In this document: positions 15,576 through 64,000 of the stretch, in pieces | How the letters are laid out: each line of letters begins with the position of its first letter | Position numbering within the stretch: position 1 is the first letter of the stretch | Assembly (NCBI GenBank): GCA_023435305.1 | Contig: JAEYRV010000027.1 | Span: forward strand, 59,114 to 123,113 | Direction: 5' to 3' | Source: Bacillota bacterium | GTDB lineage: Bacteria > Bacillota > Clostridia > Acetivibrionales > DTU013 | DNA: 64,000 bases | Program-made: the position numbers and the translations under genes | Notes under the pieces: model-generated | Seen by the model: only the letters and a program-made list of their open reading frames with translations | Database searches by the model: none | What the model was told of the DNA's origin: nothing

Positions 15576-15808
15576 ATGCGCTCCCCAAAACAGTTTTGCC
15601 GCTGACAATATCTATCTACATAAAATTATATAATATTTTTATGTATTTGAACAGGTGCTTTAGTCTGCTTTCCCCCCTTATTATAATATCATGTTTAGCT
15701 GATAATACAATAGAAACACTAATTTATAGCAATATCACAGCCTCAGATCAGCTCGGATACATTGTTACGAATTTTTCACCCGAACCAAATAATATTCACA
15801 TGCATCCC

Positions 15809-43682: not shown

Positions 43683-44816
43683 TCATTTGCTTAGATAACC
43701 CTTCATCGGATCCTTTGGTTCACCGTTTACCCTTACCTCAAAATGGAGGTGGTTTCCTGTGGACAATCCGGTGCTGCCTACTTTGGCTATTACCTCACCC
43801 GATTTAACTTCCTGTCCGACCTTTACCAGGAGCTTGCTGGCATGGCCATACAAAGTGGTGATACCGCCGCCATGATCTATAACTACCATATTTCCATATC
43901 CGCTCTTGTCATATTGAGCCATTATTACAGTGCCTTTATTTGCGGCCACTATCGATGCACCTTTATCGGCTCCAATATCGACACCTGTGTGAAGCTTGTA
44001 TTTCCTTAGTATGGGGTGCTTTCTGTTGCCGAAAGAAGATGTGATGGTTTGTGAGCTTGGGCAGGGCCAGGTCATTGAGCCGCCTGCATACTTCTTCTTT
44101 GTCGACAGGTTCTTGATGACGCTGTTGAGTCTTTTAGACTCCTCGTTCATCTTATCTATTTCTTTTTCAAGATTTGCGATCTCGGTCTTGCTCCTGGATA
44201 TTTCACCTTCGACCTCTGACCTGTCAGTTTTGATCTGCTGGATCCTCTGCTCCTTCTCTCTGGCCTTTTCCTCGTAAAATTCCTTGGCCTGCTGCTGGAG
44301 CTTCTTCTTCACTTCCACATCCTGTCTGGCTTCTTCCAGCTTCAGTATCATATTGTTGTCGTTTTCAGATATTACAGACATGTAATGGAGACGCTCATAA
44401 AATTCGACAACGCTTTTAGATTCAAGAAGTGTATCCAGCATCGTTGTGCTTGCGTTCTGGTACATCACCTGGAGTCGTGTCTTAACCAGCTCATTCTGTT
44501 GGTTATAATTTGCTATAGCTTCCGCAAGTGCGATCTCAGTCTGCCTTAGATGCTCCTCGGCATCGCTTATCTGCGCCAGGAGTTCCTCATAAGCATTTGT
44601 CTCTTCCGCCTGCTGTTTTGAAAGTGCGGCTTTTTCCCGTTCGAGCTTTGCCTTTTCGTTCAGTTCAGCCTGCTGTTTCTTCTTCAGTTCGGAAATACGA
44701 TTATCGGTGGATGCTTTCTGATTCTTTGCAGTTGACAGTTCATCCGCCATGACCGGTATTGCAGAAGAAACTAAAATTGCGACAAGTAGTATCGCGATAG
44801 TAAATCTCTTCCTCAC
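43683..44816 (-). CDS. coiled-coil M23 (LytM) metallopeptidase, EnvC/PcsB-like partner of FtsEX
   Basis: A signal peptide, ~230 aa of coiled coil and an M23 domain with intact HTGVD (HxxxD) and HLHFE (HxH) motifs are present. GTG 44816 has GGAGG 8 nt upstream. The track start at 44831 is a TTG inside that RBS. Confidence 0.85.
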   Translation of the reverse strand: MRKRFTIAILLVAILVSSAIPVMADELSTAKNQKASTDNRISELKKKQQAELNEKAKLEREKAALSKQQAEETNAYEELLAQISDAEEHLRQTEIALAEAIANYNQQNELVKTRLQVMYQNASTTMLDTLLESKSVVEFYERLHYMSVISENDNNMILKLEEARQDVEVKKKLQQQAKEFYEEKAREKEQRIQQIKTDRSEVEGEISRSKTEIANLEKEIDKMNEESKRLNSVIKNLSTKKKYAGGSMTWPCPSSQTITSSFGNRKHPILRKYKLHTGVDIGADKGASIVAANKGTVIMAQYDKSGYGNMVVIDHGGGITTLYGHASKLLVKVGQEVKSGEVIAKVGSTGLSTGNHLHFEVRVNGEPKDPMKGYLSK

Positions 44817-44877
44817 AGATTTAACCTCCAAATATATAAAATCTCCACTCCCTGTAAGGAGTGTCCCCTTACCTTAT

Positions 44878-45777
44878 TTACACCTTTAAATGTCTTCTCA
44901 GAGATATAAAGCTTCCGGTCGCACCAACTGCCGTACCTATTACCACGTACGATGAAGCCAGCTGTGTCCAGACATCCTTTATATCCACCATGCTCAGCAG
45001 CTGTGACTCGGCAAGAAACAGGTCCTGCGCGAATTTATCCTGCAGTAAGCTGTAACCATAAGCTGATATCACAAATGCCAAAATTGCCCCAACGATACTT
45101 ATTATAACACCTTCTACGACAAAAGGCCAGCGAATAAACCAATCTGTGGCGCCAATGTATTTCATAATGTTGATTTCCTTACGCCTGGCGAACACAGTAA
45201 GCTTGATGGTATTGGAAATAATAAATATCGAAACCACCAATAATATCGCTATCATAACGCCGCTGCCCAGCTTGAACCAGTGTGAGACACGAGTAATGAC
45301 CTCGATGGTATCCTGGGAATAGCTGACCTTTTCAACGCCGTTTACATTTTCCAGCGCCTTGACGACTGCATCGCTGTATGCAACATCCTTGAGCTTTATT
45401 ATAAACGATACCGGGAAAATCTCTGCCCCATACCCATCTAATATGGCCGAGTTTTTTCCAAGCTTATCACGCATCTTTTCAAAGGCCTGTTCCTTGCTTA
45501 CCCTTTCATAATGCAATATCCTGTCATCCTTTTTTATTACATCCTCTACACGCTGTATCTGTGTATCGTCCAGCTCTTCGTAGCAAAATGCCTCAAGCTG
45601 GGGCTGCTCCTTCCACATATCGATATTTGTCTCCATATTTATTACAAGCAGCAGAAAAATACCGAATACTATAAGCGAAGCAACCACTATGGCTATTGAT
45701 GCCAGTGACATCAGCTTGTTTCTATATGAGTTTACAAAACCTTCTTTAAATATATGCCGGATTGTTCTTATCTTCAT
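44878..45777 (-). CDS. ftsX: cell-division permease-like protein FtsX
   Basis: Four TM helices with a large first extracellular loop. It overlaps the ftsE 3' end. Confidence 0.9.
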   Translation of the reverse strand: MKIRTIRHIFKEGFVNSYRNKLMSLASIAIVVASLIVFGIFLLLVINMETNIDMWKEQPQLEAFCYEELDDTQIQRVEDVIKKDDRILHYERVSKEQAFEKMRDKLGKNSAILDGYGAEIFPVSFIIKLKDVAYSDAVVKALENVNGVEKVSYSQDTIEVITRVSHWFKLGSGVMIAILLVVSIFIISNTIKLTVFARRKEINIMKYIGATDWFIRWPFVVEGVIISIVGAILAFVISAYGYSLLQDKFAQDLFLAESQLLSMVDIKDVWTQLASSYVVIGTAVGATGSFISLRRHLKV

Positions 45778-46453
45778 CCCTGTATTGTCCTTTCTCCTGA
45801 TCCCTGACTATTAAGCCCTTGCTGATGGAAACAACGCGTTTCTTCATCTCATCAACGATGGATTTCTCATGCGTCGCCACAATTACTGTCGTACCCCTGT
45901 GATTTACTTCGCTCAGGAGCTTCATAATTTCCCATGATGTCTCGGGATCAAGATTTCCTGTCGGCTCGTCTGCGATCAGAAGCGCCGGGTTGTTTGCCAG
46001 AGCCCTGGCCAGAGCAACTCTCTGCTGCTCTCCTCCTGAGAGCTGGTTGGGATACATATTGGCCTTCCTGCTCAGGCCCACGAGCGCCAGCGCCATTGGT
46101 ACCTGCCTTCGGATCTCCTTTGGCAGCGCTTCGGTAATAATCATTGCAAAAGCTACATTTTCATAAACCGTTTTATTCGGCAGCAGTCTGAAATCCTGAA
46201 AAACAAAGCCCAGACTTCTTCTGAGATAAGGTATCTCTCCTCTTGACATGGACGATACATCATATCCGTTTACATAAACTTCTCCTTCACTTACGTTCTC
46301 TTCCTTGAGAAGAAGCTTGACAAGCGTTGATTTTCCTGAGCCGCTGGGACCCACCAAAAATACGAACTCGCCTTTTTCTATTTTAAGATTGACATCCCTA
46401 AGTGCTACCGTACCGTTGGGATACGTCTTTGATACGCCTTTTAACTCAACCAC
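45746..46453 (-). CDS. ftsE: cell-division ATP-binding protein FtsE
   Basis: GPSGSGKST, LSGGEQQRVALARAL and LIADEPTGNLD motifs are present. It has a GTG start with ACGGGGTG upstream. Confidence 0.9.
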   Translation of the reverse strand: MVELKGVSKTYPNGTVALRDVNLKIEKGEFVFLVGPSGSGKSTLVKLLLKEENVSEGEVYVNGYDVSSMSRGEIPYLRRSLGFVFQDFRLLPNKTVYENVAFAMIITEALPKEIRRQVPMALALVGLSRKANMYPNQLSGGEQQRVALARALANNPALLIADEPTGNLDPETSWEIMKLLSEVNHRGTTVIVATHEKSIVDEMKKRVVSISKGLIVRDQEKGQYRDEDKNNPAYI

Positions 46454-46572
46454 ACGAATACACCCCGTTGATTTATATGTCCGAAGACAATATACATTAT
46501 GTAACGTAACATATTTCTACAAAAAACCCCATAAATCCTGCTTTATAGTGTTACATTTTTATTTCCAGCATT

Positions 46573-47664
46573 TTACCGGTACTCGATTTGTTGCTTTTCC
46601 GCCTTATCCAGATATTTTTTTACAAGCAGCGACACCTTGAATATAATGGCATCATCAAAGTTTCTCAGATCCAGGCCGGTTATTTTCTGTATTTTATCCA
46701 GCCTGTACACCAGGGTGTTCCTGTGCACATAAAGCTGTCTGGAGGTTTCACTGACATTGAGGTTGTTTTCGAAGAATTTCTGGATGGTCAGCAGTGTTTC
46801 CTGGTCCAGGGCTTCGAAGGGGCCTTTCTTGAATACCTCCTTCATATAAAGCCTGCACATGGTAGTCGGAAGCTGGAATATGAGCCTTCCTATCCCCAGA
46901 TTGTCATAGTTTATGATCGCCTTGTCACTGTCGAATATGCTTCCTATCTGCAGCGCCGTCTGAGCCTCCTTGTAAGAACGCCCGATATCCCAGACACTAT
47001 CGACGATGGATCCGATCCCTATCTGTGCCTTTACCATGAGCTCTGTATTCAGGGTGTCTATTATTGCTTTGGCGGTTCGATCTATGTCCTTTGTATCATT
47101 TGCATCCTTCAGTTCCTTAATAAGCACTACAGTCTCATCATCGAGAGCTATCACGTAGTCCTTTACCTTCTTCGGGAAAAGGCCGATTATGACCTCATGG
47201 GGCTGAATGTCCCTTAATCTCTCAGTTTTTATAAGGAATACCGAACGGAATGTACTAAAGGGTATATGAAGCTCTTTTGCTTTGATCTGGATATCTCCCG
47301 GCAGTATATTGTCGGTTATGATGTTTTTAAAGAAATTTCCTCTGTCGAATTTTTCCTCGTAATAATTCTTTATATTAGCCACATTTACCGCAAGCATGGA
47401 CAAAAGCTTCTTGCTGTGTTCACCCTCCATTACGGTAAAGACTATGAACTCCAGCCTGTTCTTGATGTATACCTTCTGAAAGATCCATCCGCCGGCCTCG
47501 GTAAACATTCCGACATCATTTGTTATCTCTGAGATGGAAGGATGTGTGGTCCCTGATAAATTCTCATCCGTGCACCCCAGAATAAGTCCGGTCTCGTCCA
47601 TTATACCGAAACTTCCGCTCATGTACTCACGTATCTGGCTGATCAAATTCTGAAATAGTCTCAA
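46573..47664 (-). CDS. PucR/CdaR-family transcriptional regulator
   Basis: The C-terminal PucR HTH reads ETSRQLYVHRNTLVYRLDKIQKITGLDL. An in-frame TTG at 47664 has AGGAGG 7 nt upstream. The track start at 47703 is an unsupported TTG. Confidence 0.8.
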   Translation of the reverse strand: MRLFQNLISQIREYMSGSFGIMDETGLILGCTDENLSGTTHPSISEITNDVGMFTEAGGWIFQKVYIKNRLEFIVFTVMEGEHSKKLLSMLAVNVANIKNYYEEKFDRGNFFKNIITDNILPGDIQIKAKELHIPFSTFRSVFLIKTERLRDIQPHEVIIGLFPKKVKDYVIALDDETVVLIKELKDANDTKDIDRTAKAIIDTLNTELMVKAQIGIGSIVDSVWDIGRSYKEAQTALQIGSIFDSDKAIINYDNLGIGRLIFQLPTTMCRLYMKEVFKKGPFEALDQETLLTIQKFFENNLNVSETSRQLYVHRNTLVYRLDKIQKITGLDLRNFDDAIIFKVSLLVKKYLDKAEKQQIEYR

Positions 47665-47763
47665 ATTTATTCCTCCTGCCGTTATTGGTTTACGGGCAAG
47701 CAAAAATGAGCCGATAAAGCATCATCAAGCTTTATTATACTATATTGAAAATGTATATGGAAT

Positions 47764-47800
47764 AAAAAAAACAGTACTGACTTTTGCCAGCACTGTTTTT
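47764..47800 (-). terminator. intrinsic terminator after msmX (A-run/T-run both sides)
   Basis: AACAGTACTG-acttttgc-CAGCACTGTT has one mismatch and is flanked by A8 and T5. Confidence 0.7.
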
Positions 47801-47814
47801 GTATTAATTTTGAA

Positions 47815-48927
47815 TCAGTTTACTATCGTCTTTTCAGTGTCCTTGTCAAAGAGGTGGACTCTGTTGGTATCGATAGCTATCTTGACTGTATCGCCGGATC
47901 TTGTCTTTGTTCTCGGGTTAACTCTTGCAGTACAGCTCACGCCTTCGATGAACATGTGGAGCAGAGTCTCGGAACCGAGCATTTCAACGACTTCGACATC
48001 AGCGTTGACAATACTGTCAGACATTGACTCGAGGAACTGTTCCTCATCATGCATGCTCTCAGGCCTGATGCCCATAACGACTTCTCTGCCGATATAGTCG
48101 GTGCCTTCGAGTTTCTTTGCCTTGCCTTCGGGCAGCTTGATTTCGTTTTCGCCGAATTTGAGGAATATAGCGTCACCGCGCTTGTCGATAGTAACGTTGA
48201 TGAAGTTCATCTGCGGGCTGCCTATGAAGCCTGCAACGAACATGTTGACCGGTCTGTCATAAAGTGAGGTCGGAGTATCGACCTGCTGTACGAAGCCGTC
48301 CTTCATAACAACGATCCTGGTACCCATCGTCATAGCTTCGGTCTGGTCATGTGTAACGTAAATGAACGTAGTATTCAGTTTCTGATGGAGCTTGGTGATC
48401 TCAAGTCTCATCTGTACTCTCAGCTTAGCATCGAGGTTTGAGAGAGGTTCGTCCATAAGGAATACCTTAGGGTCACGGACTATAGCACGGCCGAGGGCAA
48501 CCCTCTGCCTCTGTCCGCCTGACAGAGCCTTTGGCTTTCTGTCGAGCAGGTGCTCTATCTCGAGGATTTTTGCAGCTTCATGAACTCTCTTCTTTATATC
48601 TTCCTTAGGAGTCTTTCTGAGCTTAAGGCCGAAAGCCATATTGTCGAAAACGGTCATATGCGGATACAATGCGTAGTTCTGGAAAACCATTGCTATGTCT
48701 CTGTCTTTTGGCTGTACGTCATTGACAAGTCTGTCGCCGATGTACACTTCGCCCTCGGAGATCTCTTCAAGACCGGCAACCATTCTGAGCGTTGTTGTCT
48801 TACCGCAGCCGGAAGGTCCAACGAGGATAATGAATTCCTTGTCTTCAATGTCCAGATTAAAGTCGCTTACAGCTGTAACACCGCCATCATACCTCTTGTA
48901 CACATTTTTTAATTTTACGCTTGCCAT
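47815..48927 (-). CDS. msmX: sugar ABC transporter ATP-binding protein, MsmX/MalK/UgpC family (orphan ATPase)
   Basis: [23 protein letters not shown] and a C-terminal TOBE-like domain support the call. No permease or binding-protein genes lie adjacent. The RBS is GGGAGG. Confidence 0.85.
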
Positions 48928-49068
48928 TTTTTACCTCCCAAATATAGATACGGTTTTATATACTTTATTACTAATATACCATGCCTTATTTTTTTCAACT
49001 AGTATACAATTCACCAAATTTAAAAAACGGTATTTAGTAACTTTGCATAATGAACAGCAGTAAAAATG

Positions 49069-49116
49069 TTGCATTATTATGCATTCGGATGTATAATTAT
49101 GAGCATATATTCATGG
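49069..49116 (+). promoter_or_regulatory. argC promoter with overlapping candidate ArgR (ARG-box) operators
   Basis: TTGCAT (49069-74), a 17-nt spacer, then TATAAT (49092-97). Overlapping AT-rich palindromic elements are TGCATTATTATGCA, ATGTATAATTATGAGCAT and TGAGCATATATTCAT. These resemble the ARG-box half-site TGAAT/TGCAT...ATTCA/ATGCA. Confidence 0.5.
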
Positions 49117-49207
49117 TATTATTATATGTAGACAATTAATACATGCTCTAAATCATGACATTATTCGCTAAAATGCCATGGCAGAAAGCAGCGGAAGGGA
49201 GAGGTTT

Positions 49208-50158
49208 ATGTCTTATAAAGTATTCGTAGACGGCCAGGAGGGAACCACAGGTCTGCAGATAAATGAACGCCTGGCTCGGCGTGATGATATAGAACTGTTG
49301 AAGATCGACCCTGAAAAAAGAAAAGATATTATAGAAAGAAAAAAATTAATAAGCGAGGCTGACATAGTCTTCCTTTGTCTGCCCGACGATGCTGCAAGGG
49401 AGTCGGTTGCTCTTGCCGAAGGCAGCAAGGCCAGGATCATTGACGCAAGCACTGCGCACCGCACGAATGATGCATGGGCATACGGTTTTCCCGAACTGAG
49501 CAGCGCCCACCGCGAAAGAATAAAGAGCGCCTCAAGGGTATCCGTGCCAGGCTGTTACGCAACGGGCTTCAATTCCATGTTATATCCGCTGATAAAGGCG
49601 CAGATCGTGCCTTCCGATTATCCTGTGACCTGCCACGCAGTATCAGGCTATAGCGGCGGCGGAAAAAAGCGCATTGCTGAATATGCATCCGCCGACCCTG
49701 CTGACGAAGCCATTAGGAGTCCAAGATTTTATGCACTTTCACTAAAGCACAAGCACATACCGGAAATGCAGAAGATCTCGGGTCTCAGCCAGCCGCCTCT
49801 TTTCACTCCGATCATCGGACCCTATTACAAGGGCATGACGGTTGCAGTTCCTCTTTATGCAGGGATGCTTAATAAAATGAAAAGCGCCGAAGCTGTTTCC
49901 GATTTTTTCTCTTCATATTATAAGGATCAGCGCTTTATAAAGGTTTATCCCTTTGGCTCTGACGGAGGCATCATTGACGGCTTTCTGGACGCTACCGGCT
50001 GTAATGATACAAATATCCTCGAAATATATGTTGCCGGGAATGATGAACATATCCTCCTGACCGCAAGACTCGACAACCTTGGCAAAGGCGCATCGGGCGC
50101 CGCTGTCCAGTGTATGAATATCATGCTGGGTATTGATGAATCTGTCGGACTGGAATAA
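49208..50158 (+). CDS. argC: N-acetyl-gamma-glutamyl-phosphate reductase (short, type-2 form)
   Basis: VFVDGQEGTTGLQI and the catalytic PGCYATG motif are present in a ~316-aa form. ATG 49208 follows GGGAGAGG. Confidence 0.9.
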   Translation: MSYKVFVDGQEGTTGLQINERLARRDDIELLKIDPEKRKDIIERKKLISEADIVFLCLPDDAARESVALAEGSKARIIDASTAHRTNDAWAYGFPELSSAHRERIKSASRVSVPGCYATGFNSMLYPLIKAQIVPSDYPVTCHAVSGYSGGGKKRIAEYASADPADEAIRSPRFYALSLKHKHIPEMQKISGLSQPPLFTPIIGPYYKGMTVAVPLYAGMLNKMKSAEAVSDFFSSYYKDQRFIKVYPFGSDGGIIDGFLDATGCNDTNILEIYVAGNDEHILLTARLDNLGKGASGAAVQCMNIMLGIDESVGLE

Positions 50159-50181
50159 AATATTGATTAATGGAGGTCATA

Positions 50182-51075
50182 ATGGAAACCATCATCAAAA
50201 AGGCTGAGATACTGATAGAGGCTCTTCCTTACATACAAAAGCTGCATGGCAAGACCGTCGTCATAAAATACGGCGGCAACGCAATGATCAATGAGGAGCT
50301 TAAGAACTCCGTAATGGAAGATATCACGCTTCTGAAATATATAGGACTAAATCCGGTAGTGGTCCATGGCGGAGGGCCGGACATCAACAAGATGCTCGAA
50401 CGCCTGGATATCAAAAGTGAGTTTGTAAATGGTCTGCGCGTCACCGACAAGGAGACTATGGAAGTGGCCCAGATGGTCCTTATAGGAAAGACTAACAAGG
50501 AAATCGTATCTCTGATCAACCAGAACGGCGGAAAGGCCATCGGCCTTTGTGGTATAGACGGCAATATCCTGGAGTGCGAGCAGTACAAAACGGCCATTGA
50601 CGGCGTCGAAACAGACATCGGTCAGGTTGGCCGGATCACCAAAGTCAACTCCGCCGTGCTGGAGTTCATGGCAAAGGATGAGTACATCCCGGTGGTGGCT
50701 CCTATTGGCATCGGCAGCGACGGCCGCAGCTACAATATAAACGCAGATACCGTGGCAGGTGAGGTAGCAATAGCGCTTAAGGCGGAAAAGCTGATGCTCC
50801 TGACTGATGTGGAAGGCGTGAAGGGCAATGATGGTATATTGCATGCCCTGACAGCGGCAGAGGCCCATGACCTCATTGACAGAAAGGTCATCAACGGCGG
50901 TATGATCCCGAAGGTGCTCGGATGCCTGGAAGCTCTGGACAAAGGCGTGGGAAGGACTCATATAATCGACGGCAGGATCCCTCACTGCATACTGCTTGAA
51001 ATATTCACAAACAAGGGCATAGGTACCATGATAATGAAGGAAAAGGTTCTTTATTTCGACAAAGAAAATCTATAA
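50182..51075 (+). CDS. argB: acetylglutamate kinase
   Basis: [17 protein letters not shown] and NINADT motifs are present. ATG 50182 lies 6 nt after GGAGG. ATG 50170 lies inside that RBS. Confidence 0.9.
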
Positions 51076-51120
51076 AAATTTTCCTATGGAATTTGTGTGT
51101 TTTAATTAACAATTACAGGT

Positions 51121-51153
51121 ATCCATCCGATATACTATCGGATGGATTTTTTT
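51121..51153 (+). terminator. strong intrinsic terminator between argB and the PilZ gene
   Basis: A perfect 12-bp stem ATCCATCCGATA-tac-TATCGGATGGAT is followed by T7. It ends 2-6 nt before the AGGGGG RBS of the next gene. Confidence 0.85.
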
Positions 51154-51158
51154 AGGGG

Positions 51159-51824
51159 GTGATCGGATTGAATGCCTCATATATTCCGGCTGTACTGAAG
51201 CAAGGCATGATGGTAGGCGTACGCATCGGGCAGGATTCCCAATGGCACGGCAATATCGTCTACGGAGTGACCGGCAATGTTATACGCATTGCATATCTGG
51301 AAAAATTCATAAAGCAATATGCCGAACCTGAGTGTCCGGTTTGGGTCAAATATTCAAATGACTATTTTATCTACTATTTCTATGGCAAGGTGAAAAGAAT
51401 AGGCGCCGAGTCCCCCAAATACATCATGGTCGCACTTGAGAACGCCGAAGAAATGATAAACAACAGACTTTACCCCCGTTATGATGTCCGTCTCGAGGCA
51501 ACTCTCCGTCCGCTCTGGGACGACGAAACCTATAAGTGCGTTATAACAGACCTTTCATACGGCGGCGCCGCCTTCGAATGTGAGCACAAATTTGACGGCA
51601 ATGAAAATATAGAAATGGTGATACACCTGCCGGAATGCGAGCCTGCCAAGGTGACAGGAAAGGTCCTGAGACGCAGATGCACCAATGGCATTATCGCCGA
51701 TCATGCAGCACAGTTTATAGAATGTGACAATATAAGCAACAAACAGCTTTCAAATTATTTCAACAAACTGGAAAACGAGGCCTCGGAAATATACGATCGG
51801 TACATGGATAATGAAAATAAATAA
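51159..51824 (+). CDS. YcgR-like PilZ domain protein (predicted c-di-GMP receptor)
   Basis: The PilZ motifs are RLYPR (RxxxR) and DLSYGG (D/NxSxxG). A ~110-aa N-terminal PilZN-like domain precedes them. The start is either GTG 51159 or TTG 51168, and the latter lies 8 nt after AGGGGG. Confidence 0.8.
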   Translation: MIGLNASYIPAVLKQGMMVGVRIGQDSQWHGNIVYGVTGNVIRIAYLEKFIKQYAEPECPVWVKYSNDYFIYYFYGKVKRIGAESPKYIMVALENAEEMINNRLYPRYDVRLEATLRPLWDDETYKCVITDLSYGGAAFECEHKFDGNENIEMVIHLPECEPAKVTGKVLRRRCTNGIIADHAAQFIECDNISNKQLSNYFNKLENEASEIYDRYMDNENK

Positions 51825-51844
51825 TTCAGTATATAATAATATTT

Positions 51845-51873
51845 ATAAAGAGGCGTAATGCCTTTATTTTTTG
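51845..51873 (+). terminator. weak intrinsic terminator after the PilZ gene
   Basis: AAAGAGGC-gtaat-GCCTTTAT is an imperfect stem followed by T6. Confidence 0.45.
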
Positions 51874-51912
51874 TTGCATTTTTATACATTGCATTGTATA
51901 ATTATGAATAAA
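51874..51912 (+). promoter_or_regulatory. argD promoter with candidate ARG boxes (paralogous to the argC module)
   Basis: TTGCAT (51874-79), a 17-nt spacer, then TATAAT (51897-902). The string TTGCATTTTTATACATTGCATTGTATAATTATGAATA is closely similar to the argC promoter. Confidence 0.5.
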
Positions 51913-51950
51913 ATAAATTTAAGTGTCACGGATAAAGAGGAGTTGATTTT

Positions 51951-53150
51951 ATGGATCTCCATGAGATAATGGATATGGATTCCAAATACTATATGAATAC
52001 CTTCGGCGCCAGGACACAGGTGTGTTTTGACCACGGCAAGGGCATGAAGCTCTATGATGGCCTGGGCCGCCAATACTACGACTTTTTAGGCGGCATTGCC
52101 GTAAACGCTCTGGGATATGGTCATCCGGCACTGGTTCAGGCTGTCAGTTCTCAGGCAGAAAAGCTAATGCACTGCTCAAACCTGTATTACATAGAATCTC
52201 AGGCCAGGCTTGCGAAAATGCTGGTCGAAAACTCCTGCGCTGACCGTGTCTTCTTTGCAAACAGCGGCGCCGAGGCTAATGAAGGTGCCATCAAGCTTGC
52301 CAGGATCTATTTCAAGAAAAAGGAAATGCCCCAGAAGTATGGCATCATAACACTTAAGAACTCATTCCATGGCAGGACGCTTACAACAGTGGCCGCCACG
52401 GGACAGGAAAAATATCAGAAGCCCTATGCACCATTGATCCCGGGCTTCAAGCATGTTCTCATAAATGACCTCGATGCCCTCAGTGCGGCTGTGGACAGTG
52501 AGACCTGTGCAATAATGCTTGAGCTTGTCCAGGGAGAAAGCGGAGTAAACCCGCTGGATGCAGACTATGTAAGAGCTGTACGCAAAATGTGTGATGAGAA
52601 GGATCTGCTGCTGATCTTTGACGAGATCCAGACAGGAATGGGCAGGACCGGTAAGCTTTTTGCATACGAGAATTACGAAGTAGAGCCCGACATATTCACA
52701 CTGGCCAAAGCACTGGCCGGCGGCGTTCCTATCGGAGCTGTGTGCGCAAAGGAAAATGTGGCACAGGCCTTCGCTCCGGGAGACCACGGCTCCACCTTCG
52801 GAGGCAATCCTCTGGCATGCGCCGCGGGACTTGCCGTTATGCAAACCATAATGGCGGAGGGCCTGCTTGCAAATGCCGAAAAAATGGGCAGTTATCTTAA
52901 GGAAAAGCTGCTTGTATTGAAAAATAAGCTCGATATCATCACAGAGGTCCGCGGTCTTGGTTTGATGATCGGTATCGAACTGGGGCAGCAAAAAGCTCTG
53001 GAAGTGAAAAACAAGCTGTTTGAGAAGGGCTTCCTCGTGGGCAGCGTCGGTACGGCTGTTATAAGGCTGCTGCCTCCGTTGATCATAGCAGAGGGCGACA
53101 TAGATGTATTTGTAAAAGCTTTGGAAGAAGTACTTATATCAATGAAATAA
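51951..53150 (+). CDS. argD: acetylornithine aminotransferase
   Basis: Class-III aminotransferase motifs are present: FANSGAEANE, DEIQTGMGRTG and TLAKALAGG (PLP lysine). The RBS is AAAGAGGAG. Confidence 0.9.
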   Translation: MDLHEIMDMDSKYYMNTFGARTQVCFDHGKGMKLYDGLGRQYYDFLGGIAVNALGYGHPALVQAVSSQAEKLMHCSNLYYIESQARLAKMLVENSCADRVFFANSGAEANEGAIKLARIYFKKKEMPQKYGIITLKNSFHGRTLTTVAATGQEKYQKPYAPLIPGFKHVLINDLDALSAAVDSETCAIMLELVQGESGVNPLDADYVRAVRKMCDEKDLLLIFDEIQTGMGRTGKLFAYENYEVEPDIFTLAKALAGGVPIGAVCAKENVAQAFAPGDHGSTFGGNPLACAAGLAVMQTIMAEGLLANAEKMGSYLKEKLLVLKNKLDIITEVRGLGLMIGIELGQQKALEVKNKLFEKGFLVGSVGTAVIRLLPPLIIAEGDIDVFVKALEEVLISMK

Positions 53151-53171
53151 AAGTGTAAAAGGAGTGCATAT

Positions 53172-54227
53172 ATGAAATCAGTATTGGTTCTTGAGGATGG
53201 AACGTATTTCCCCGGTCTGGGTTTTGGAGCAAGCGGTGAAACTGTGGGCGAAGTAGTATTTAATACATGTATGACAGGTTACCAGGAAATCACTACCGAC
53301 CCCTCATATAACGGTCAGATAGTAACAATGACATATCCGCTTATCGGTAACTATGGGTTCAACACTGAAGACAACGAGTCTTCCAAAACTCATGTCCAGG
53401 GCTTTATAGTAAAGGAGCTCTGCGAGTATCCCAACAACTGGCGATGTTCAATAGGTACGGATGAGTATTTTAAGAAAAACAACATCATCGGTCTCAAAGG
53501 CATCGATACCAGAGCTCTGACACAGCATATCCGAAGCTTCGGAAGCATGTACGGGATAATCTCCACAGAGTGCGGCAATGTAGATGTTTTGCTGGAAAAG
53601 CTCAAGGCAAAAATGCAGGAACCCCGGAATCTGGTAATGGAGGTCACCTCAAAGGAGCCGATCCACATAAAGGGCGAGGGAAAAAGGGTCGTATTGCTGG
53701 ACCTCGGAATGAAGCACAACATAATAAGATATCTGGAGAAACACAATTGTGATATTTACATAATGCCGGCAAATTCCACATTTGAAGACATTATGGCCTG
53801 TGAGCCGGATGGGATCCTCGTTTCCAATGGACCTGGCGACCCGGCCGACCTTGTGGAGCAAAAGGCAGTGCTGCAAAAGCTGATCGGCAAAAAGCCGCTG
53901 TTTGGCATTTGTCTTGGCCACCAGCTGCTGGGACTGGCCCTGGGCGGCACCACCTACAAGCTGAAGTACGGTCACCACGGCGCCAACCATCCTGTCAAGG
54001 ATTTTACGACAGGCAGGTGCTATATAACCTCTCAGAATCACAATTATGCACTGAAGGAAAGCTCCTCCGATGATATTGAAATAATCCAGATCAATGTCAA
54101 TGACAATACCGTCGAAGGCTTCCGGCACAAAAGCCTGCCGGTGCTTGGCGTTCAGTACCATCCTGAAGCCGCTGCCGGTCCAAGGGATTCTTCGTACATA
54201 TTCGATGATTTTATGAAAATGATGTAA
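53172..54227 (+). CDS. carA: carbamoyl-phosphate synthase small (glutaminase) subunit
   Basis: MTGYQE, GICLGHQ (catalytic Cys) and the QYHPE triad support the call. Confidence 0.95.
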   Translation: MKSVLVLEDGTYFPGLGFGASGETVGEVVFNTCMTGYQEITTDPSYNGQIVTMTYPLIGNYGFNTEDNESSKTHVQGFIVKELCEYPNNWRCSIGTDEYFKKNNIIGLKGIDTRALTQHIRSFGSMYGIISTECGNVDVLLEKLKAKMQEPRNLVMEVTSKEPIHIKGEGKRVVLLDLGMKHNIIRYLEKHNCDIYIMPANSTFEDIMACEPDGILVSNGPGDPADLVEQKAVLQKLIGKKPLFGICLGHQLLGLALGGTTYKLKYGHHGANHPVKDFTTGRCYITSQNHNYALKESSSDDIEIIQINVNDNTVEGFRHKSLPVLGVQYHPEAAAGPRDSSYIFDDFMKMM

Positions 54228-54313
54228 AAATGACGGAATAGTATATCAGATATGCAATGCGGCATCAGAGCTTATATTGCTGCATTGCTGTTATGTATGA
54301 TGTGGAGGTATGT

Positions 54314-57300
54314 ATGCCTAAAAGAAATGACATAAAAAAAGTGCTCGTCATAGGATCGGGTCCGATCGTAATAGGCCAGGCAGCCGAATTTGACTATTCA
54401 GGCTCTCAGGCCTGCAAATCCCTGAAGGAAGAGGGAATGGAAGTCGTTCTGGTCAACAGTAATCCGGCAACAATAATGACCGACAGTGAAACCGCTGATA
54501 AGATTTATATAGAGCCCATCACACTGGATTATGTGAAAAAGATAATCGAACGTGAGAAGCCCGATGGCATACTTGCCTCGCTGGGCGGGCAAACAGGCCT
54601 TAACATGGCTGTCCAGCTGTCAGATGACGGTATCCTGGACAGACTCGGAATCGAATTGCTGGGGACCTCCCTGCTCTCGATTAAAAAGGCTGAGGACAGA
54701 GAACTGTTCAAGGAAACCATGCAGAACATAAATGAGAAGGTCCCTCACAGCACGATAGTGACTAATCTCACCGATGCTATAGCATTCGCCGAGTCCGTGG
54801 GCTTCCCTATCATAATCAGGCCGGCGTATACTCTCGGCGGCACAGGCGGCGGTATTGCCGAAAACATGGAGGATTTCAGATATATCTGCGGCAAGGGGCT
54901 GAAGCTCAGCATGATCAATCAGGTCCTGCTGGAGCAAAGCGTTGCAGGCTGGAAGGAAATCGAATTCGAAGTAATGCGCGACGGTTCGGACAACTGCATA
55001 ATCATATGCAGCATGGAAAACTTCGACCCTGTCGGCGTACATACCGGTGACAGTATCGTGGTCGCTCCCTGTCAGACGCTGTCAGACATTGAATACCAGA
55101 TGCTCAGGACCGCATCCATCAAAATAATCCGCGCCCTCGAGATAAAAGGCGGCTGCAATATACAGTTTGCTCTCGACCCCGACAGCTACGAGTACGTTGT
55201 TATAGAGGTAAATCCGAGGGTCAGCCGTTCCAGCGCTTTGGCATCAAAGGCAACAGGCTACCCCATTGCCCGTGTGACTTCAAAGATAGCCATCGGCATG
55301 GACCTGGATGAGATAAGGAACTCCGTCACCCAAAACACTTTTGCCTGTTTCGAGCCTACTATCGATTATATAGTAACAAAAGTGCCCCGCTGGCCCTTCG
55401 ATAAGTTCACCTCCGCGGACCGCTCTCTCGGAACACAGATGAAGGCCACCGGAGAGGTAATGGCTATCGGAAGGACCTTTGAAGAGTCACTTCTCAAGGC
55501 AATCGATTCGCTGGACATAAAGCTCAACTACCAGCTGGGTCTTGAGCTGTTTGACAACAAAACGACTGACGAACTGATCGAGGTTCTCAGATCGCCAAGG
55601 GATGAACGTATCTTCGCGATCTTCAAGGCGCTGCAGAAGGGTATTCCAGTGGAAAAAATCGTCGATATCACCAAGGTCGACAGCTTCTTCATCCACAAGC
55701 TGCAAAATATAGTCCAGGTTGCAGAAGATGTCACAAATGCAGGAATCGCATGGCTTGACTACGACCTGTATATGCGCGCAAAAAAGATCGGCTTTGGCGA
55801 TTCATACATAGCTAACCTGGTAAATGTACCGGTGGATACAATACTGGACCTCCGGCAGAAATATCCCATAAATCCGGTATATAAGATAGTTGACACCTGT
55901 GCCGGAGAATTTGAGGCAGTGACGCCCTACTACTATTCCACCTATGAAGAGCACGATGATGTTATCGTCTCCGACAGGAAGAAGGTACTGGTAATAGGCT
56001 CGGGCCCCATCAGGATAGGTCAGGGTATAGAGTTTGACTACTGCAGTGTGCATTCCGTCAGGACTCTTAAAGAACTTGGAATAGAATCGATCATCATAAA
56101 CAACAACCCGGAAACCGTCAGCACGGATTTTGACACCTCTGACAAGCTCTATTTCGAGCCGCTGACAAAGGAATGCGTACTGGATATAATAGAAAAGGAA
56201 AACCCCGAAGGAATAATCGTCCAGTTTGGAGGCCAGACTGCCATCAACCTGGCTGAGACGCTTCACAAGGAAGGCATAAAAATACTCGGCACCTCTGTTG
56301 AAAGCATCGACATTGCAGAGGACAGGGATAAATTCCTGAAGCTCCTCGATGAGCTTGACATACCGATACCGGAAGGAAGCACTGCATATTCGGTCAAAGA
56401 AGCGCTGGCCATTGGCAATCGGATCGGCTACCCCGTATTAGTCAGACCCTCCTATGTCCTTGGCGGAAGAGCTATGGAGATAGTATACAATGACAAGTCA
56501 CTGGAAGAATACATGAGGATGGCAGTCGGGCTGTCAAAGAAGCATCCGGTGCTGATCGACAAGTATATAAACGGTACCGAAGCTGAAGTCGATGGTATAT
56601 GCGACGGTGAGGATGTCCTTATCCCGGGTATATTCCAGCATATCGAACGAGCAGGCGTCCATTCCGGCGACAGTATTGCAGTCTATCCCCCGCACACGCT
56701 GTCACAGGAGGTAAAGAACACCATAACAGATTATACTGTCAGGCTGGCAAAAGCCTTGAAGACAGTGGGCCTGTTTAACATACAGTTTGTCATCGATTCG
56801 GACAATAAGGTCTATGTCATCGAAGTCAATCCCAGGGCAAGCCGTACTATCCCGATAATGAGCAAGATAACCGGCATCCCAATGGTGAATGTCGCAACAA
56901 AGCTCATAATGGGCAGCAAGCTGAGAGAGCTCGGCTATGAGCCCGGTCTGGCAAAGGAAACGGAGTTCACAGCTGTCAAAGCGCCTGTATTCTCATTTGC
57001 CAAGCTCACTACGGTAGATACGTTCCTCAGCCCGGAAATGAAGTCCACAGGCGAAGTCATGGGTGTCGATAAAACTTACCGTCAGGCGCTGTACAAGGCT
57101 TTTATCGCCTCAGGGCTGTCAATACCAAGAGACGGCAGTGTCCTGATAGCTGCAGGCGAAAGAGATAAGGAGGACTGTCTTGTTATCTCATCAAGGTTCA
57201 GCAAGCTCGGCTTCAAGCTGATGGCAGTTGAAGATACCTACGGTTATCTTTCCGACGCCGGCCTTGCCGTAGAGCTGATTTCCGAGGCAAACATCCTTGA

Positions 57301-57529
57301 TTATATTAAAAACGACAAAGTGTCGCTGGTCATCAGCACACCTGCAAAGGAAGGCATACCGGGAAGACTGGGCTTCTCCATCAGGAGGACCTCAATGGAA
57401 TACAATACTCCCTGCCTTACATCACTTGACACTACCAACGCAATGCTTGACGTACTTGAGCATCTGTCCAATAACGGCGATGCAGAGATATATGCACTGG
57501 ATGAATATTCCCATAAACCCGTGATATAA
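54314..57529 (+). CDS. carB: carbamoyl-phosphate synthase large subunit
   Basis: [30 protein letters not shown] is followed by duplicated ATP-grasp halves and a C-terminal MGS-like domain. ATG 54314 lies 5 nt after GGAGG. The track start at 54257 is an extension. Confidence 0.95.
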
Positions 57530-57565
57530 GCAAAACCGGGAAGTAATCAGAAAGGAAGATAAGCA

Positions 57566-58483
57566 ATGAAACATCTTATAGACCTGAACGACGTATCGTA
57601 TGAGGAGATCGAAAGCCTTTTTTCACTGGCTGAAAAATTGAAAAAAGAGCTTCGTACGGGAGTCCGGCATCATCTGCTGGAGGGTAAGACCCTTGGAATG
57701 ATCTTCTCGAAATCCTCCACAAGAACCAGAGTTTCGTTTGAGGTAGGAATGTACCAGCTTGGAGGCTTCCCCATATTCCTCAGCTCCAACGACATACAGC
57801 TCGGCCGCGGCGAGACAATATATGATACGGCGAGGGTCCTCTCCCATTATATAAACGGCATCATGATCAGGACCTTCAAGCACAGTGATGTGCAGGACCT
57901 GGCAAAGTACGGTACGATACCGGTAATAAACGGGCTTACTGACCTGATGCATCCATGCCAGATACTGGCCGACCTCTTTACTGTGTACGAGGAGAAAGGC
58001 AAACTCAAGGGGCTGAAGCTGGCCTATATCGGAGACGGCAACAATGTTGCCAATTCACTGCTGCACGGCTGTGCCAAGACAGGCATGGATATTGCTGTGG
58101 CCGCCCCCGCCGGCTATATGTGCGACGGCACGATCATCGAGCAGGCCAGAAGCGCCGCTGCCAAATCCGGCAGCAGCGTAGTGATCACGGAGGATCCCGA
58201 GGAAGCCATCAAGGACGCAGATGTTGTCTATACGGATACATGGATAAGCATGGGTCAGGAAGATGAGAAGGAAATGAGAATAAAAATATTCATGCCGTAT
58301 CAGGTCAACGAAAAACTGTTCTCACTGGCAAAAAAGGATGCCATGTTCCTCCACTGTCTGCCTGCATACAGGGGCCTGGAAGTAACTGAAGAAATTATAG
58401 ACGGCCCCAACTCATGTGTATTTGACGAAGCAGAGAACAGGCTGCATATTCAGAAGGCCATTATGGCAACATTAATGGGGTGA
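57566..58483 (+). CDS. argF: ornithine carbamoyltransferase
   Basis: The motifs are STRTR, HPCQ, DGNNV and HCLP. Confidence 0.95.
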   Translation: MKHLIDLNDVSYEEIESLFSLAEKLKKELRTGVRHHLLEGKTLGMIFSKSSTRTRVSFEVGMYQLGGFPIFLSSNDIQLGRGETIYDTARVLSHYINGIMIRTFKHSDVQDLAKYGTIPVINGLTDLMHPCQILADLFTVYEEKGKLKGLKLAYIGDGNNVANSLLHGCAKTGMDIAVAAPAGYMCDGTIIEQARSAAAKSGSSVVITEDPEEAIKDADVVYTDTWISMGQEDEKEMRIKIFMPYQVNEKLFSLAKKDAMFLHCLPAYRGLEVTEEIIDGPNSCVFDEAENRLHIQKAIMATLMG

Positions 58484-58493
58484 GTACAGAATC

Positions 58494-58973
58494 ATGGTGG
58501 ATTATTCTTTTATAATACGAAAGGCAGTTGAAGAGGATGCTCCTGCAATTTACGAAATAATGCAGGAGTCCTTCAGCAAATATATGGCTGACACAGGCCT
58601 GACATCTACAATGGAAGCCTTACAGGAGAGCTGTGAGGACATTGTAAGGGATATACGGACCAAGGAAGTCTATATTGCAGTCATGGACAATATTGCAGTA
58701 GGAAGTGCAAGGGTTTCCATACTGCCAGACAACACGGCATATCTTAGCAGGTTCGGCGTACGCCTCAGCTATCATAACATAGGGATCGGAAAATCATTAA
58801 TGAATCTGATCGACAAGACGCTGATCAAAAGGGGCATAAAAAGCGTAAGCCTTCATACCGCATCCAGGTATAGGGATCTTGTCAGATTCTACTATGGCAG
58901 GGGTTTTTACATAGACTCCATAACAAAAGACAAAGGCTATGTCAGAGCCCTTATGATAAAGGAATACTGTTGA
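58494..58973 (+). CDS. GNAT family N-acetyltransferase (last gene of the arg operon)
   Basis: The acetyl-CoA motif reads YHNIGIGKSLMN. It starts 10 nt after the argF stop, with a GGGTGAG RBS. Confidence 0.8.
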   Translation: MVDYSFIIRKAVEEDAPAIYEIMQESFSKYMADTGLTSTMEALQESCEDIVRDIRTKEVYIAVMDNIAVGSARVSILPDNTAYLSRFGVRLSYHNIGIGKSLMNLIDKTLIKRGIKSVSLHTASRYRDLVRFYYGRGFYIDSITKDKGYVRALMIKEYC

Positions 58974-58977
58974 AGCT

Positions 58978-59017
58978 ATGCACGCCCTGGGCTAAGCCGG
59001 GTGACGGGCATGCATTT
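58978..59017. terminator. hairpin between convergent GNAT and HTH genes
   Basis: ATGCACGCCC, an 18-nt loop, then GGGCATGCAT (one mismatch) followed by TTTC. The U-tract is weak. Confidence 0.35.
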
Positions 59018-59025
59018 CATTGCTG

Positions 59026-59235
59026 TCAGATACTGATATACTCCTCGAAGTCCAATCCGTTGATTTTGCAGTACTTGATAACGGACATCAGAATCTTCTT
59101 TCCGCCGCCGACGCCTGTATTGAGAAATCTGTACAGGTGTGACGGATCGACTCCGAGTTCTCTTGCAAACCGGTTGTAATTCCCCGCGCAGTTGGTCTTC
59201 ATAAGATCATGAACCTTCTGCCTGTTAACTTCCAT
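59026..59235 (-). CDS. small helix-turn-helix protein
   Basis: The 69-aa protein contains NYNRFARELGVDPSHLYRFL (an HTH). ATG 59235 has GGAGGAAAG upstream, and the track start at 59289 is an extension. Confidence 0.6.
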   Translation of the reverse strand: MEVNRQKVHDLMKTNCAGNYNRFARELGVDPSHLYRFLNTGVGGGKKILMSVIKYCKINGLDFEEYISI

Positions 59236-59413
59236 TTTGCTTTCCTCCAATAATTTTCCAGAATGAACCATAAAATAAATTCTAGGCAAATACTTACATT
59301 TTTATTTAATATTAGTACAAGCCTAGAATATTGTCAATACATTTCCGACCATTTTTTTACTGTACTTTTGCCGCCCTGATTCAGTCCGTCGAATCAATTG
59401 GATATCATCCCGG

Positions 59414-59959
59414 TCATATTTTATATTTTCTGATGACGTTCTTAAGGATCATATGCAGAAAATACGCGGGTATGGAAACGATGATCCCTTTGACAATGTT
59501 GAACGGAATAGTTATCGCAAGGATCGTATCCAGCAGTACCTTGTTATCCGCACCCTTCATATACAGCGGAAGAGTGATAAAATAATTAACAAGGTTCGCT
59601 GTGACTGTCATCCCTATGGTACCTAAAATCAGTCCGATCCACATTCTTTTTCCATTTTTTCTGGTCACAAGCACGATTGGCAGCACCAATCCTATACCGG
59701 CGGCAAAGTTTGCTATCTCACCGATCCCGCCTTCCTTGCTCATGGTGAAGAAATGCAGCAGGTTCTTCAATAATTCCGTTGCAACTGCTGCCAGCGGTCC
59801 TGCGATGATACCGCTGAAAATAGCAGGAAGATCGCTGAAATCGATTTTCAGGTATGAAGGAAAGTATATAAAAAGCGGAAACTCAAGCGCCATTAATACC
59901 CATGAAAGAGCGGAAAGCACACCAACCAGCACAATTACCCTTGTTCTTTTTGAAGCCAT
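59414..59959 (-). CDS. ribU: ECF-transporter S component, riboflavin-type (RibU-like)
   Basis: It has about six TM helices and sits directly downstream of an FMN riboswitch. ATG 59959 lies 6 nt after GGAGGG. The track start TTG 59965 abuts the RBS. Confidence 0.75.
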   Translation of the reverse strand: MASKRTRVIVLVGVLSALSWVLMALEFPLFIYFPSYLKIDFSDLPAIFSGIIAGPLAAVATELLKNLLHFFTMSKEGGIGEIANFAAGIGLVLPIVLVTRKNGKRMWIGLILGTIGMTVTANLVNYFITLPLYMKGADNKVLLDTILAITIPFNIVKGIIVSIPAYFLHMILKNVIRKYKI

Positions 59960-60000
59960 AATCAACCCTCCAATTTGCTTTATTTCCCCGAAAGGAATAA

Positions 60001-60180
60001 AATAAAAAATCCCCGGAATAGGATCCCAGGGACATCAATGGTCAAAAAGCGCGCATCTTCTTCCATCCAGACTGTACTGTCGGCTCCGGGATCACACCGG
60101 GATCTGCTTTCGCTCGCGGGCTAACGGCCATTGGCCGCATTACCGCCGGTAGGGAATCTCACCCTGCCCTGAAGATCATA
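60001..60180 (-). promoter_or_regulatory. FMN (RFN) riboswitch with terminator expression platform
   Basis: The minus strand reads ATCTTCAGGGCAGGGTGAGATTCCCTACCGGCGGTAA...AGCCCGCGAGCG...GATCCCGGTGTGATCCCGGAGCCGACAGTACAGTCTGGATGGAAGAAGAT, which gives the aptamer at ~60055-60180. A hairpin TCCCTGG...CCGGGGA with T6 follows at ~60004-60033. Confidence 0.9.
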
Positions 60181-60243
60181 TTCAATTTCCCTAATACTAA
60201 CACCTTTGTGTTGTCCATGTCAATAGTGAAATAGCCACAGCCC

Positions 60244-61143: not shown

Positions 61144-61353
61144 AAAATTACCGTCCCCTGACCACCTGTTTTTCAGGTATTCATAATATTTATCATTTTA
61201 CCCGGTTTCATAGAGATAAAACCTCTGCATATATATTCTACATCATTTTTTGCAGATTCCAACCCCCGCTTCTTCATCATCTTTGACAAAGCACACAGGT
61301 TATAATATCATCAATATTGTCAGTATTATCAACAAGTAAGGGGACACCGGACG

Positions 61354-63945: not shown

Positions 63946-64000
63946 ACTAAAGATACCTCAAACAATACCGGCGAATATGTTTACCGGCTTGCAGCGGCCC

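Follow-up and report, generated by a model that had tools for sequence, protein, structure and literature searches.

Introduction

Characterized two-domain receptors for cyclic diguanylate (c-di-GMP) include YcgR of Escherichia coli and Salmonella, a flagellar brake, MotI (DgrA/YpfA) of Bacillus subtilis, a c-di-GMP clutch acting on MotA, and PlzD (VCA0042) of Vibrio cholerae, the downstream target of which is poorly defined. A gene predicted to encode a protein of this type, pilZ (51168-51824, + strand), lies between the arginine genes argB and argD in a 64-kb stretch of DNA (hereafter referred to as the window) from a Bacillota bacterium of the Acetivibrionales (contig JAEYRV010000027.1). 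The first-pass annotation of this DNA considered pilZ to be a c-di-GMP receptor gene located inside the arginine cluster, boxed in by terminators and dependent for its expression on read-through of the argB terminator or on a weak promoter in the loop of its hairpin. The evidence presented here leads us to favour, with moderate confidence, a different reading, in which pilZ is driven by its own sigma-D/FliA-type promoter, overlapping the argCB terminator, and is likely to be a motility gene acting on the flagellar motor.

The product of this gene resembles YcgR in its predicted organization, with a PilZ-like barrel at the N-terminus and a canonical PilZ domain after it, and in its intact RxxxR and DxSxxG motifs. 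It gave a full-length Foldseek match to the YcgR structure 5y6f (E = 1.4e-6), at a sequence identity of only ~13%, and the FliA site identified by chromatin immunoprecipitation at E. coli ycgR, TTAAG-N15-CCGATAA (PMC4183435), has the same form as the promoter motif upstream of pilZ. However, the window protein has no match to Pfam PilZN (YcgR_N), its host is a Gram-positive clostridium, its gene lies between arginine operons, and motor binding would be assumed by analogy. MotI, the closest characterized relative from the Firmicutes (5vx6, E = 1e-9, 205-214 aligned columns), is 15-18% identical, but PilZNR, the N-terminal domain of MotI, was not matched by the window protein. The best structural match was to PlzD (2rde, E = 1.6e-10), which differs in being proteobacterial and only 14% identical. 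The available part of the account of the PilZN7-PilZ proteins by Galperin and Chou (bioRxiv 10.1101/814665) describes proteins from the same taxa (Acetivibrio/Hungateiclostridium), with the same architecture of a lineage-specific N-domain and PilZ, present in multiple copies in cellulolytic clostridia (nine paralogues in H. thermocellum); it mentions neither a position in an arginine cluster nor a promoter. The window protein agrees with this group in taxon and architecture, and may belong to it. Our literature search retrieved no description of a PilZ gene in an arginine cluster.

A candidate sigma-D-type promoter overlapping the argCB terminator

The argB and pilZ genes, on the same strand, are separated by 92 nt. 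This spacer contains a -35-like element, TTAAC (51106-51110, + strand; family consensus T[T/A]AAG), at a conserved spacing from a putative -10 element of the sigma-D/FliA type, CCGATATA (51127-51134, + strand). The -10 element reads tCCGATAT at positions 51126-51133; it extends from the 5' arm of the argB terminator into the loop, the first base of which completes its core (51127-51133). Judging from its similarity to characterized promoters, the family motif T[T/A]AAG-N16-CCGATAT(A) would be a form of the sigma-D/FliA (sigma-28) promoter: the sigma-D consensus of B. subtilis is TAAA-N15-GCCGATAT (PMC5200910), and the Clostridioides difficile fliC promoter mapped by rapid amplification of cDNA ends reads TAAAG-N16-CCGATAA (PMC3865298). 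The window site differs from flagellar sigma-D promoters in its -35 element, TTAAC, and in the embedding of its -10 element in an intrinsic terminator.

The conservation of the motif was assessed in the loci recovered by a synteny scan with one genome per species (22 loci, all from metagenome-assembled Bacillota/Clostridia/Acetivibrionales; loci L001-L022 are assemblies from uncultured organisms). Of the 22 related loci, 20 had an unaltered CCGATAT ahead of pilZ, including L019, in which it lies ~205 nt upstream, and the remainder of the argB-pilZ spacer was far less conserved; variant -10 sequences were found in L009 (CCGATGA) and L023 (tCGATATA). To our knowledge, CCGATAT resembles no other sigma consensus of the Firmicutes (A, B, E, F, G, H, K, L). 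At positions -21 to -17 relative to CCGATAT, the residues were T (19/19), T or A (19/19), A (18/19), A (14/19) and G (13/19); the -35 sequence TAAA was exact in five loci, and the spacing, for which 13-16 nt would be expected, comes to 15-16 nt under alternative readings of the element. The motif was retained in the absence of the hairpin in L006, L007, L010-L013, L015-L017 and L022, and in L017 it stays beside pilZ even though a 1.6-kb insert parts this gene from argB. Locus L023, with a PilZ protein only 41% identical to that of the window, keeps TTAAG-N16-tCGATATA. A strict pattern for the motif matched the 64-kb window once, at the pilZ site, and the 414 kb of window and loci 20 times, with 16 of these matches upstream of pilZ (3.8 expected from shuffled sequences). 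The plain heptamer CCGATAT was also in excess in the window (23 copies versus 8.9 expected), but this excess is uninformative by itself, because nearly all the copies lie in coding sequence. A scan of positions 51076-51160 called no sigma-A promoter, in agreement with the earlier view that this spacer has no room for a conventional promoter.

The intrinsic terminator of argCB (51121-51153, + strand) comprises a 12-bp stem (51121-51132 paired with 51136-51147), a 3-nt loop and a T-run extending to 51153. Its existence, already proposed in the first-pass annotation, was confirmed. The stem is perfect, with five GC pairs, and is followed directly by a run of seven T residues; the predicted folding energy was -17.3 kcal/mol (z = -4.0), a stability attained by 0 of 200 shuffled sequences. 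A strong argB-pilZ hairpin was found in the window and in L001-L005, L018 and L020, a partial one in L008 and a different one in L014, and the hairpin was absent from L006, L007, L009-L013, L015-L017 and L022. For eight hairpin-bearing loci, selected for having this structure, 97.9% of cells paired and four pairs displayed compensatory double changes, giving a covariation score reached by none of 500 shuffles. The outer part of the 5' arm varied (ATCCAT, ATTCAT, GCAAC and TTAAT), each variant occurring with a matching 3' arm, and the half containing the -10 element was unchanged. Covariation of the outer stem, alongside a constant -10 half, suggests that the promoter came first and that the terminator formed around it. 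Locus L014 (3470-3535) provides a second case of a -10 element within a hairpin, but of another sequence: a long argB-pilZ hairpin (-22.3 kcal/mol) with TATAAT in a 20-nt loop and no CCGATAT.

We propose that pilZ forms a single-gene transcription unit in the gap between two arginine operons, with the argCB terminator overlying a sigma-D-type promoter in the window and in about one third of the relatives. Transcripts of argCB would contain both hairpin arms and the U-run, and would stop at the T-run. By contrast, the sigma-D polymerase would start ~7-10 nt past the -10 element, in the 3' arm (predicted start, ~51139-51145), and the pilZ mRNA, retaining no more than half of the hairpin and having a ~27-nt leader, a strong Shine-Dalgarno sequence (AGGGGGUGAUC) and a UUG start codon, would escape termination. 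The predicted leader is nearly unstructured (-1.2 kcal/mol), and its implied length (the distance from the -10 element to the start codon being 34 nt) is similar to that of the mapped 28-nt leader of C. difficile flgM (PMC3865298). A start in the 3' arm would mean that pilZ, contrary to the initial proposal, needs neither antitermination nor read-through.

The start codon used in this reconstruction is almost certainly the TTG at 51168, giving a protein of 218 amino acids (aa), because homologues begin at this position, GGGGG precedes the codon by 8 nt and public gene calls contain the 218-aa form. The open reading frame (ORF; 51159-51824) does have the 221 codons initially reported, from a GTG at 51159, but use of this GTG as the start was rejected in view of the starts of the homologues and the 218-aa form on public record. 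The Shine-Dalgarno region, AGGGGGTGATC (51154-51164, + strand), includes AGGGGG, beginning at 51154, immediately after the T-run; orthologues have GGAGGTG or GGGGGTGA, with a spacing equal to that of the window gene.

Predicted structure and family of the PilZ protein

The window protein matched Pfam PilZ (PF07238) with a score of 44 bits, against a cut-off of 22.5, over profile positions 2-99 of 102, and the same family was matched by all 37 orthologues. The two signatures reported in the first-pass annotation were indeed intact: RLYPR occupies residues 100-104 and DLSYGG residues 128-133, in accordance with the [D/N]hSxxG motif as defined in bioRxiv 10.1101/814665. Residues R100, R104, D128, S130 and G133 were invariant across the 37 orthologues (alignment A1), and the arginines of RxxxR were at least 90% conserved among 62 remote relatives. 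A public protein search yielded 61 clusters with 51-86% identity, and a few more, at 39-42%, emerged from a profile search. The whole family set comprised 68 clusters (39-86% identity), all of about 220 aa; an exhaustive profile search retrieved 564 representative relatives.

The AlphaFold2 model obtained with the family alignment as input (predicted local distance difference test score of 87.6) consists of an N-terminal beta-barrel (~15-97), a canonical PilZ barrel (105-186) and a C-terminal helix (188-217), in line with the six-stranded barrel and terminal helix expected of a PilZ domain. In addition to PlzD, MotI and YcgR, its full-length Foldseek matches in the PDB included MrkH and PP4397; the alignments to 2rde, 5vx6, 5y6f, 3kyf and 5kgo covered 202-214 columns and spanned both domains. 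Stand-alone PilZ domains were matched at target-normalized TM-scores of 0.6-0.8. At sequence level, a wider profile, A2, reached MotI (E = 4e-5, residues 52-195), extending into the N-terminal domain, and the PilZ domain of PlzD (E = 2.4e-5), whereas the narrow profile A1 matched only the DxSxxG stretch of solved structures, with E-values of 0.06 or worse. PilZNR matched three of the 37 orthologues weakly (best E = 0.006) and two of 62 sampled remote relatives (best E = 4e-14), and no NCBIfam family matched the window protein. The PilZN-like N-domain originally suggested is therefore present in the predicted fold but not as a Pfam match. According to the model, the protein is a member of the YcgR/MotI/PlzD architectural class, with a divergent N-terminal PilZ-like barrel and a canonical PilZ domain; its sequence indicates that it is related to the PilZN and PilZNR groups without being a member of those Pfam families. 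The gene would thus be that of a c-di-GMP receptor of a known two-domain PilZ type, and "YcgR-like PilZ receptor" is a fair description of its architecture, the binding of c-di-GMP being predicted from the conserved residues.

By analogy with the flagellar brake encoded by E. coli ycgR, a gene that depends on FliA, and given the MotI/YcgR fold, the PilZ protein would slow or disengage the flagellar motor at high c-di-GMP, and the motor is its most likely target. The sequence evidence suggests that pilZ is probably a gene of the motility regulon rather than an arginine-controlled gene. In the related C. thermocellum, which has ~43 flagellar genes, these genes and 'PilZ' are expressed more strongly in planktonic cells (PMC5327387). 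In L010, the gene after pilZ encodes a chemotaxis receptor, and an ORF of similar size, with a near-identical leader, is found at this position in L011. A conserved, operator-like palindrome, TATACTAAC/GT..AGTTAGTATACTAAC, precedes the receptor gene in L010 (7820-7890) and the ORF in L011 (7790-7850). The c-di-GMP signalling genes of the window encode two GGDEF proteins: a REC-GGDEF protein (14637-15608, - strand), a candidate diguanylate cyclase, and a 1737-aa Ser/Thr kinase-AAA_16-TPR-GAF-GGDEF protein (32187-37400, - strand), a candidate for a very large multi-input c-di-GMP synthase.

Synteny, inheritance and the connection with arginine

The genes of the + strand between 49178 and 58483 are arranged in the order argC, argB, pilZ, argD, carA, carB and argF. 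The argC gene (49178-50158), encoding N-acetyl-gamma-glutamyl-phosphate reductase, was identified by matches to Pfam Semialdhyde_dh and Semialdhyde_dhC_1 and to NCBIfam TIGR01851 (argC_other, E = 1.7e-126), and its true start may lie slightly downstream of 49178. The argB gene (50170-51075), encoding acetylglutamate kinase, matched Pfam AA_kinase (E = 2e-46), and homologues 79-95% identical to it carry this name in their sources. Downstream from pilZ, argD (51951-53150; Pfam Aminotran_3, E = 5e-125) is the first gene of an argD-carA-carB-argF operon (51951-58483), assigned from Pfam matches and from synteny in 17 of 22 genome loci.

Each of the two arginine operons has its own promoter on the + strand. 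That of argC (49069-49102) is TTGCAT-N17-TATAAT, with ARG-box-like repeats (TTGCATTATTATGCAT, then GTATAATTATGA), and that of argD (51874-51912) is TTGCAT (51874-51879)-N17-TATAAT (51897-51902), also with ARG-box-like repeats (TTGCATTTTTATACAT, then GTATAATTATGAATA). A near-identical block, TTGCATTWTTATRCAT-N7-GTATAATTATGA, fronts argC and argD, the argC copy matching the conserved argD block with one mismatch. The pilZ-argD spacer ends in TTGCATTTTTATRCAT-N7-GTATAATTATGAATA, which is nearly invariant in all argD loci, including L023, L028 and L029, and the argD block shows almost no variation in a set of about 25 genomes. As they resemble ARG boxes, the repeats before argC and argD are probably ArgR operators. 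The TTGCATTWTTATRCAT block occurs in the window only at 49069 (argC) and 51874 (argD), and nothing similar is present in 51076-51167. The cluster is, therefore, made up of two operons, argCB and argD-carAB-argF, with pilZ between them and in neither, because argC and argD each have their own sigma-A promoter.

The pilZ gene followed argC-argB in all 21 loci with sufficient upstream sequence, and argD-carAB-argF followed pilZ in 17 loci. The arrangement was also kept in L023, at 41% PilZ identity, and in the cultured species Acetivibrio straminisolvens and A. mesophilus, at 29% PilZ identity (E = 5e-30), with both motifs intact. Other genes follow pilZ in L009, L010, L011 and L015; in L024 (854-3285), three genes, one with a T6SS_HCP domain, separate pilZ from argD. 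A gene of ~1.2 kb is present in the 1.6-kb insert between argB and pilZ in L017 (2447-4043), and from its sequence it looks like a gene for an iron-containing alcohol dehydrogenase. In two abundant close lineages (L028 and L029; ArgB 84% identical), pilZ is absent and the order is argB, terminator, argD promoter and argD. Among the relatives, PilZ identity was 52-86%, versus 70-96% for the arginine enzymes. These sequence comparisons indicate that pilZ is old at this position, fast-evolving and liable to loss. Recent horizontal transfer was rejected on the basis of a G+C content of 0.449, close to that of the window (0.462), the presence of orthologues down to 29% identity and the absence of any pilZ paralogue from the 64-kb window; pilZ is a genuine, vertically inherited gene. 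A truncated orthologue was observed in L021 (7001-7456), on an 889-kb Acetivibrionales contig, with 143 residues aligning and the remainder of the frame recognizable in the spacer that follows; either the gene has decayed to a pseudogene or the long reads contain a frameshift.

The persistence of this arrangement could be taken to mean that the PilZ protein acts on arginine metabolism, for example through the c-di-GMP-dependent binding of ArgB or another enzyme of the cluster. The pilZ gene follows argB in 24 contexts, with PilZ identities from 86% to 29%, including the cultured Acetivibrio, and where the cluster is broken (L009, L010, L011 and L015), it stays with argCB. However, gene order is conserved in this clade over a region of ~15 kb (FtsEX, PucR-like, ABC, argCB, pilZ, argD-carAB-argF), so adjacency may be merely inherited and does not by itself prove a tie to arginine. 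Moreover, the two close lineages lacking pilZ keep the rest of the cluster, PilZ diverges far faster than the arginine enzymes, motility is suggested by both promoter type and fold, and no such link was found in the literature. We consider a role for PilZ in arginine metabolism unlikely. The connection with arginine is positional, and conserved gene order explains the adjacency at least as well as function does. The notion that pilZ is part of an arginine operon and tied to arginine control is not supported, given the separate promoters of argC and argD, the lack of any ARG-box-like site before pilZ and the two lineages without this gene.

Transcription of pilZ from other signals

We also considered whether pilZ might lack a promoter of its own and be reached only by transcripts passing the argB terminator, whether by simple read-through or by regulated antitermination, an arrangement that would place it under the control of ArgR and arginine. 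This possibility is consistent with the location of argB and pilZ on the same strand, 92 nt apart, with no sigma-A promoter called, and about half the relatives have no strong hairpin between these genes; in those relatives, argCB transcripts probably continue through pilZ as far as the terminator downstream from it. Nevertheless, the terminator of the window, with its perfect 12-bp stem and run of seven T residues, has been maintained, according to the covariation data, and read-through would leave the T[T/A]AAG-N16-CCGATAT motif unexplained, this element following pilZ when the gene is parted from argB (L017 and L019). There was no known riboswitch or leader RNA in the spacer and no ARG-box-like site nearby. 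Read-through is therefore a rather improbable source of pilZ expression in the window, and is plausible only in the relatives without the hairpin.

The Rfam scan, performed on positions 44000-64000 with permissive thresholds, detected only an FMN (flavin mononucleotide) riboswitch at 60051-60180 and a sub-threshold small RNA match over the terminator (E = 0.28), and a riboswitch or known leader RNA in the argB-pilZ spacer was rejected on this basis. The second terminator, reported after pilZ in the first-pass annotation, was found to be present (51849-51875, + strand; AGAGGC-GTAAT-GCCTTT plus a T-run, hairpin 51849-51865) but weak (-7 kcal/mol, z = -1.1), and is not significant by itself; a hairpin and T-run occupy the equivalent position in most relatives, with the exception of L013 and L016-L018.

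The other mechanism initially put forward was initiation by sigma-A at a weak promoter, the -10 element of which, TATACT (51131-51136), would lie in the hairpin loop, such that hairpin formation would compete with it. TTAACA (51106-51111) and TATACT each match five of the six positions of the consensus hexamers, and the site proposed was close to the conserved element. However, the spacer between these hexamers is 19 nt, against a range of 16-18 nt, the site was not called by the scan, and the loop bases completing TATACT vary in close relatives (ACT, GAA, ATA and GAG), whereas CCGATAT is constant, making CCGATAT(A), of the sigma-D type, the conserved element. Nor would promoter and terminator be mutually exclusive in the manner proposed, one being a DNA element and the other an RNA hairpin formed on argCB transcripts. 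The use of this site as a sigma-A promoter is thus very unlikely. Finally, CCGATAT(A)...TATCGG forms the centre of a perfect palindrome in the window and could be the operator of a dimeric transcription factor rather than a promoter element, but at least 10 loci keep only the 5' half, the 3' half having been lost, and the second conserved block lies 16 nt away on one side only, a promoter geometry rather than dyad symmetry, such that we give this explanation scant credence.

Other features of the window

A gene for a small GNAT acetyltransferase (58494-58973, + strand) directly follows argF, in L023 also, and no argJ or argA was found in the cluster; this GNAT protein could be a short N-acetylglutamate synthase, its NCBIfam matches being weak and generic. 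The FMN riboswitch (60051-60180, - strand; 106 bits, E = 3e-24) lies upstream of the gene for the substrate component of an ECF (energy-coupling factor) transporter (59414-59965), which is probably a riboflavin transporter. Positions 19987-26745 (+ strand) encode a surface protein of 2252 aa, in which SLH, beta-helix and Ig-like domains are combined. Seven of the 23 CCGATAT heptamers in the window lie on the antisense strand of its gene, a concentration probably due to a repeat or codon-usage effect.

Discussion

The reading of pilZ as a sigma-D-driven motility gene must be weighed against several observations at odds with it. The assignment of the promoter to sigma-D is drawn from motif similarity, and the window site deviates from the B. 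subtilis consensus in its -35 element (TTAAC, not TAAA), in a spacer longer by 1 nt and in the T in place of G before CCGATAT. The conserved copies of the motif are orthologous, and so demonstrate conservation rather than providing independent observations. The motif was not found in the cultured Acetivibrio orthologues (29% identity), L014 and L021 carry TATAAT-like elements instead, and the chemotaxis receptor gene of L010/L011 is preceded by a sigma-A-like promoter and a palindromic operator. By the strict motif, the 64-kb window contains no second sigma-D-type promoter, and its genes include no sigma-D or flagellar gene. In L023 (9948-10002), a stable hairpin (-24.8 kcal/mol, z = -2.7) and the UUUU behind it are placed immediately 3' of the motif, instead of over it, and could attenuate the pilZ transcript itself; a scan of this leader gave no credible match to an Rfam family. 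As to the protein, PilZN (PF07317) and PilZNR (PF12945) were not matched by the window protein at E-values up to 5, and the TM-scores of the full-length structural matches were only 0.4-0.47, although such values would be expected where two domains differ in relative orientation. The fold class also takes in MrkH, making the motor one possible target among others. MrkH is a transcription factor. Lastly, a role connected with arginine is still conceivable, because pilZ has been retained beside argB even where PilZ identity falls to 29%. A leader similar to that of L023 was observed in L024 (...TGTCCCCGTTTG).

Together with the lasting presence of pilZ after argB, the overlapping of its promoter by the terminator might couple arginine status functionally to c-di-GMP and motility output, an idea that we regard as doubtful. 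In one version, heavy transcription of argCB, on relief of ArgR repression, would end exactly on the sigma-D promoter and could occlude it; in the relatives without the hairpin, it would run into pilZ. In the other, c-di-GMP-bound PilZ might act on ArgB, by analogy with cyanobacteria, in which PII acts on N-acetylglutamate kinase. The evidence supports neither version.

If the sigma-D interpretation is true, a gene that appears to be boxed in by terminators has an ordinary explanation, an alternative-sigma promoter hidden in the terminator upstream. This would call for caution in annotation, as a scan for sigma-A promoters misses such a promoter, and a terminator beside a ribosome-binding site does not imply antitermination. 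The data demonstrate neither a new mechanism nor a new link between arginine and c-di-GMP. The occurrence of a PilZ orthologue at the same position in cultured Acetivibrio makes these questions testable in a tractable organism. For the uncultured Acetivibrionales of anaerobic digesters, pilZ would, if this interpretation is true, be a candidate marker of the sigma-D regulon and a likely c-di-GMP effector of motility.

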